This document shows positions 63,593-63,858 of a DNA stretch of 64,000 nt, piece after piece. The notes below the pieces were generated by a model. That model was not told the DNA's origin. It worked only from the letters and a program-made list of their open reading frames with translations, and did no database searches. A program made the position numbers and the translations under genes. Every line of letters starts with the position of its first letter. The stretch's first letter is position 1. This DNA is from a virus. Its lineage: Duplodnaviria > Caudoviricetes. Where the stretch lies: the IMG/VR virus record IMGVR_UViG_3300025129_000005; one strand, written 5' to 3'.

Positions 63593-63858
63593 AAATTATG
63601 GGATGTTGGCTTAGAAGCAGCCATCATTTAAAGAGTAGGGCAAGCGCATGATGTTGTGGCAATTAGGTTGGTAGGAAGGGCATCCAATGACCAACTGAAC
63701 GGACGAACCAAAAGTTTGATCTCGCTAAATCAAATGAAACGGTATTTGGGTGGCTCCCATAAGTCCTAGCGGCACATGAGTCCACGTGGTAAAGTGAAAC
63801 GGCACCCCAGAAATGGTAAGGCTGAATCCCCTTTTGGCGTAATAGCACACCATAATTT
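63593..63858 (+). ncRNA. RNA reproducing the 23S rRNA uL11-binding domain (H43-H44) with a 200-nt insert
   Basis: GGATGTTGGCTTAGAAGCAGCCATCATTTAAAGAGT (63601-63636) ... GCGTAATAGCACAC (63837-63850), closed by a 9-bp helix AAATTATGG/CCATAATTT. Confidence 0.8.

Follow-up and report, generated by a model that had tools for sequence, protein, structure and literature searches.

A free-standing phage RNA resembling the GTPase-associated centre of 23S rRNA, and the domain inserted in it at U1090

The 200-nt insert that divides an rRNA-like RNA near the end of the 64,000-nt stretch of Caudoviricetes DNA analysed here (the window; IMG/VR record IMGVR_UViG_3300025129_000005) is, as judged by comparison across a family of such RNAs, very probably a multi-helix middle domain that is retained in the molecule rather than spliced out of it. 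The RNA and its middle domain are real and undescribed, and the reading of the insert as an intron is rejected. The first-pass annotation had placed the insert at 63637-63836 (plus strand, as for the other parts of the RNA and its promoter), directly after U63636, the equivalent of U1090, with G63836 as its last base; these boundaries stand, as does the observation that removal of the insert joins GAGT to GCGT and restores a contiguous H44. Between the two interpretations then offered, a minimal self-splicing element and a fused functional domain, the conserved junction and covarying helices described below support the second.

The whole phage RNA spans about 265 nt. Its outermost element is a 9-bp terminal helix (63593-63601 pairing with 63850-63858) that replaces H42, and the equivalents of this helix across the family are 70-98% paired, with many pair types. 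The 5' half of the GTPase-centre mimic (63601-63636) corresponds to 23S nt 1055-1090, comprising H43, the junction and the start of H44, and matches the Rfam model LSU_rRNA_bacteria with E=1.5e-4; the 3' half (63837-63850) corresponds to nt 1091-1104, with the H44 loop bearing A1095 and an A at 1101. The E. coli reference letters that label these positions agree with the rRNA in one of the loci compared (L020). Covarying pairs in the 5' half of the family alignment include 1058-1080, 1057-1081 and 1082-1086, the last being a tertiary pair that occurs as U-A in 72 sequences, C-G in 47 and A-U in 19. The base triple 1072/1092-1099, which has been described for rRNA (PMC8614978, PMC2952862) and here spans the insert, is C/C-G in 185 sequences, U/U-A in seven and mixed in two. 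U1060 and A1088, the pair read by uL11 (PMC2175356), are invariant in the family, an invariance partly forced by the search patterns. The covariation of the H43/H44 pairs, of 1082-1086 and of the triple shows that the rRNA-like ends have the GTPase-centre fold. The mimic hence shares with the GTPase-associated centre of 23S rRNA (H42-H44, E. coli 1051-1108; the uL11/thiostrepton site) the H43/H44 sequence, U1060/A1088, the 1082-1086 covariation and both base triples, but it differs in being free-standing and phage-encoded, in having a plain helix in place of H42 and Kt-42, in being always split at 1090|1091, and in carrying A at 1101 and relaxed positions 1096/1097. An A at 1101 opposite U1090, as in the phage RNAs, also occurs in some true 23S genes of bacteria and archaea (L347-L421).

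The same two-piece arrangement was found, by blastn and pattern scans of cultured phages and viral contigs, in 162 distinct sequences, 13 of them from MAG contigs; these sequences are related, and all counts given here are counts of sequences that overstate independent events, with conservation inflated at positions used in the search patterns. The bacterial MAG contigs with a mimic include L241, L247, L251, L253, L263, L267, L297, L298, L322, L324, L330 and L338. Such an RNA is thereby carried by well over a hundred large phages. The split site, U1090|G1091, is identical in every phage copy, and insert lengths form a continuous range of 27-369 nt with a median of 134 (27-350 nt in the 162 sequences, 91 of them below 150 nt and 33 below 100 nt), so that the length of exactly 200 nt, to which significance had been attached, is incidental. 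Middle domains fall into 89 clusters representing many unrelated classes. Cultured carriers, in which the RNA is unannotated, include phages Aeromonas 4_4572, Pseudomonas pf16, Astolliot and UNO-G1W1, Serratia BF, Cronobacter GAP32 and Ralstonia RSP15, and their existence opens the family to experiment now; Aeromonas 4_4572 and Pseudomonas pf16 and UNO-G1W1 have a mimic of the window's own subfamily. Two paralogous mimics with differing insert classes are found in single phages (L023, L141, L155, L431 and L330), lying in tandem in Pseudomonas phage Astolliot (L023:2165-2675), and in L023, L141, L155 and L431 the additional copy has the triple in its U/U-A form. A pattern scan for close relatives gave no matches, and among the matches listed for plasmids only the 5' half was represented, as expected of rRNA.

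The ends of the insert are brought together by a closing helix, P1, whose 5' strand (63637-63640) pairs with 63829-63832 and which is already present, with P2 and the 3' module, in the unconstrained MFE fold. Its four pairs are formed in 99, 98, 93 and 72% of the 162 sequences, as against 38-58% in shuffles; the helix measures 3-4 bp, and G-C, A-U, U-A and C-G pairs all occur in it. The 3' strand of P1 continues into a UUUR linker (together 63829-63836), and the final base of the insert, which can pair with U1090, is always a purine (U-G in 148 and U-A in 14 of the 162). With its ends joined by a covarying helix of 3-4 bp that is followed by a UUUR linker, the insert has the character of a domain grafted into the RNA and retained there. 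A second expansion site is seen in H43, at 1077/1078, in eight members (L004, L010, L034, L062, L096, L099, L119 and L127; also L003 and L148), with some 20-50 extra nt that often form a hairpin, and retained expansions are therefore tolerated in this RNA. The minimum free energy of the window's insert is no better than that of shuffles (z=1.5), and its predicted structure is supported by comparison, not by energy.

The largest insert class, with 41 of the 162 sequences (a count inflated by the targeted scan), includes the window's insert. The architecture of this class is a three-way junction of P1, a variable arm, and a conserved AAGU strand with a 3' module. The arm opens with P2 (63644-63657 pairing with 63769-63781), a helix of moderate support that is found in the MFE fold and whose register is also predicted in relatives, where it is individually not significant. 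The three hairpins already named by the first-pass annotation exist, and relatives keep their loops on changed stems; they lie in the arm of a longer subgroup, the smallest members of the class being about 65 nt. Hairpin H1 (63666-63696) has a recurring purine-rich loop of GGCAUC type, on stems of 6-10 bp and differing sequence in seven of nine tested relatives. H2 (63714-63735), with a conserved UCGCU in its loop, and H3 (63747-63759), with a URGCN pentaloop, are candidate kissing partners: the two loops complement each other in one register, with joint alterations in L141 and L148, and a contact between them is probable. A stem of 4-5 bp for H3 was recovered in all nine relatives (each p<=0.025), an optimistic result because the anchor was the best stem. 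On the 3' side, the AAGU junction strand J2/3 (63792-63795; AGU at least 90% conserved in alignment A2) precedes a subfamily module, P3 (63801-63823), built of a 3-bp stem, an ACC/UAAG internal loop, CC/GG and a GNRA- or UAAC-type tetraloop. The P3 stem is 97.8% paired, with compensatory changes at three pairs and G-C, U-A, A-U and C-G all present at one, and its ACC/UAAG loop is invariant across distant phages. A pattern internal to the insert returned 45 viral matches, and those examined all lay in such an RNA, with a constant spacing to its H44 half. Neither P1 (63637-63640/63829-63832) nor the module at 63801-63823 had been noticed in the initial annotation.

Other motifs earlier singled out in the insert fare less well. 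The two copies of TGAAACGG (63735 and 63795) are attributable to chance, 25% of dinucleotide shuffles repeating some 8-mer, and the second copy overlaps positions that are variable in relatives. The proposed GGAC/GTCC pairing has its sequences in place (63701 with 63763 or 63780), but no conserved counterpart was seen in relatives. A role for the insert in switching the mimic on finds no backing, in that no conserved alternative pairing between the insert and the rRNA-like ends was found. The insert holds no conserved reading frame, an ATG ORF of at least 20 codons being present in only 29 of 162 sequences, and no match to known RNAs or rRNA elements could be demonstrated for it: no Rfam 15 family reached its gathering score, and blastn of the inserts against loci bearing 23S or 16S gave merely scattered short matches. 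Likenesses picked out by eye (P3 to H62, the H1 loop to H97, UUUGG to the base of H89) were set aside as weak leads, the patterns being unspecific or out of register.

The middle is unlikely to be a neutral expansion segment, under selection just to stay folded away. Its length varies more than tenfold, versions exist that are hairpins of 27 nt, and there is no excess folding energy, all of which would suit such a segment; nonetheless, the unpaired P3 bases are invariant in distant phages, conserved loops sit on variable stems, and some phages maintain a pair of paralogues whose inserts differ in class. Like the expansion segments and intervening sequences of rRNA, the middle domain interrupts an rRNA fold at a constant position, varies in length and is closed by a helix, but it lies outside an rRNA gene, has a closing stem of just 3-4 bp and possesses conserved modules of its own. 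The expansion segment that had been named as the outcome opposed to splicing is, at the level of sequence, largely what is observed.

We consider it likely that the RNA is a two-domain, free-standing decoy or imitation of the ribosomal factor-binding site with a retained middle domain. Comparison establishes the division into two domains, the constancy of the graft site, P1 and the tertiary signatures. Under this proposal, the promoter-driven phage RNA would fold into two domains, the 5' and 3' ends assembling the 58-nt uL11-binding GTPase-associated centre much as tmRNA builds its tRNA-like domain, and the family anatomy suggests that the 200-nt middle would be kept in the mature RNA. The middle would leave H44 after U1090 by a 4-bp helix and return through UUUG, with U1090 pairing either with the last purine of the linker (U-G or U-A) or else with A1101; inside it would lie the three-way junction, the conserved 3' module and the variable arm, on which a pair of the three hairpins would presumably kiss. 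The RNA would act off the ribosome, its ends putatively binding uL11 and presenting the A1067 and A1095 loops, and the middle may be an exchangeable module that governs how stable the RNA is or which partner it binds. In some long relatives this module would display a sarcin-ricin hairpin: a hairpin of that kind with a flanking stem occurs in inserts of more than 300 nt of another class (L069, L085 and L191), and the pattern AGUA-N-GNRA-N-GA is absent from the window's insert.

Binding of the RNA to uL11 seems fairly likely, the invariance of U1060 and A1088 pointing to it only indirectly. Against the proposal, the 1077/1078 hairpins of eight members may stand near the uL11 face, and the insertion adjoins the G1071/G1091-C1100 triple, where it might upset the folding. 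As to the benefit for the phage, RelA activation needs uL11 (PMC7058999), and we tentatively suggest either counter-defence, by absorption of ribosome-directed defence enzymes, or the damping of RelA. More speculatively still, the family might constitute a modular, protein-free imitation of the factor-docking surface, in which a constant uL11-binding head carries at U1090 a second domain that is exchangeable and has a tertiary fold; the window's class would then bind a specific host partner, silencing RelA signalling or absorbing a ribosome-directed anti-phage toxin, and two paralogues would cover two partners. If true, phage counter-defence RNAs would extend from tRNAs to rRNA domains, and the family could hint at unknown host defences that target the ribosomal stalk. 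The constant position of the graft, for its part, reveals where the best-studied rRNA tertiary domain tolerates a second domain.

A different function, in which the RNA acts on the ribosome after host nucleases have damaged the stalk, either docking via its middle to supply a replacement GTPase centre or recruiting uL11 or uL10-L12 and factors to phage translation, is quite unlikely. Cotranscription with tRNAs and the presence of both parts of the factor-binding site in some members would fit such a role, as would the weak resemblance of the H1 loop to that of H97, a loop that in the ribosome contacts H42 (PMC2952862). In the phage RNA, however, a plain helix stands in place of kink-turn 42 and of H97's partner in H42, the resemblance to H97 comes without a pattern match, and the middle domains are of many unrelated classes.

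The off-ribosome imitation has its closest parallels in other RNAs that copy parts of the translation machinery or of the host. In tmRNA, which occurs in phage tRNA regions, the two ends together imitate a component of translation while the variable stretch between them is retained, and the present RNA is similarly organised, but it mimics rRNA instead of tRNA and has no conserved reading frame. Ribosomal protein mRNA leaders (L1, L10, S8, L20) mimic rRNA as cis-regulators of host r-protein operons; here too an rRNA protein-binding site is imitated off the ribosome, whereas no r-protein gene comes after the mimic here and no Rfam leader model matches. Phage decoy RNAs, such as pseudo-ToxI and RNA anti-CRISPRs, likewise resemble an RNA of the host, plausibly so as to sequester one of its proteins, but in the present case the protein targeted would be a ribosomal one or a factor directed at the ribosome, and the molecule has two domains and a tertiary fold. 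Rfam 15 has no entry for a ribosomal functional centre copied as a free-standing phage RNA, and no description of such an RNA was found in the literature searched, subscription journals being largely outside that search. Genes for tmRNA, one of them permuted, were seen near mimics in other phages (L191:8163-8535, L433:1861-2208, L047:6723-6944).

Splicing by a protein-catalysed or otherwise novel route, with a nuclease reading P1 and the UUUR bulge and a ligase joining the halves, would explain boundaries that are fixed to the nucleotide independently of length, as in enzyme-spliced introns, and would give a purpose to the Rnl2-type ligase gene about 1.4 kb downstream and to the 2'-5' ligase gene that abuts the XacN1 copy. 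Nevertheless, there is no bulge-helix-bulge geometry, ligase homologues lie near only 3 of 160 loci (one query), and conserved internal domains and sarcin-ricin hairpins would be hard to account for in a discarded piece. An intron of the bulge-helix-bulge type, whose splice sites lie in two 3-nt bulges flanking a 4-bp helix, was itself considered and rejected, the UUUR linker being one-sided and positions +5 to +8 being unpaired at chance level. Mimics free of the insert were sought by exact pattern, with no match in IMG/VR viral contigs and 75 in metagenomes, all of them genuine 23S genes; because this search needs the exact pattern and a short spliced RNA would escape it, enzyme-driven splicing is rated as very unlikely rather than rejected.

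The self-splicing reading, in which a minimal group I intron is excised with GTP to yield the active mimic, has practically nothing left to commend it. Its appeal lay in the U before the insert, the G at its end, a length close to the 205 nt of the Azoarcus IC3 intron (PMC3895272), and a joined product whose H44 is perfect and includes U1090-A1101, which is also present as a pair in real 23S genes. The U and G are not group I signatures, because U1090 is simply the usual rRNA base and the final base may be G or A (52 and 14, respectively, among 66 sequences found without the 3' pattern). The Infernal scan proposed at the outset gave no Rfam match to a group I intron (RF00028) or a ribozyme on the insert to E=10, nor did it in inserts from the loci of 32 relatives (20 + 12), whereas true group I introns at other places in L013 and L130, which served as positive controls, scored 70-72 bits. 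A group I 5' site requires its U to be paired to a G of the IGS (PMC3895272), and the single IGS candidate for the splice-site U is a weak 5/6 match in mid-insert, at 63742, the first bases of the insert pairing with its own 3' end instead. Homologous inserts of 27 nt are far too short for such an intron, and no insert-less allele was recovered by the exact-pattern search.

The locus is an intergenic stretch flanked by phage genes, without flanking 23S sequence, in a window with the features of a large phage, among them a family B DNA polymerase gene and a Mom-like gene. A 23S rRNA gene or a contaminating fragment was rejected as the source on account of these flanks and of the identical stretch being present in two independent assemblies, which also rules out an assembly artefact. 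Across the family, 78 of 137 mimics have a same-strand tRNA no more than 1 kb away, and many abut one; the window's copy, the only one found in it, has instead its own candidate sigma-70 promoter directly upstream (63548-63576; TTGACT, 17 nt, TATCAT; 10/12 match), which is a consensus match only, seven such sites being found against 4.2 expected, with a position that fits. A long imperfect inverted repeat 3' of the RNA (63866-63955, with AT-rich arms at about 63866-63885 and 63932-63950) is a possible terminator or processing stem and was left unscored by the terminator scan. The Rnl2-type RNA ligase gene mentioned above belongs to the same phage and lies past the end of the window (L422:11941-12963). 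Within the window, a repeat of about 30 nt marks the ends of two small genes (60562-60597 and 60806-60835), and the first 8.4 kb hold 15 tRNAs and a GOLLD RNA (3300-3729, 177 bits), the latter set in the tRNA cluster with two tRNA-Ser genes adjoining it.
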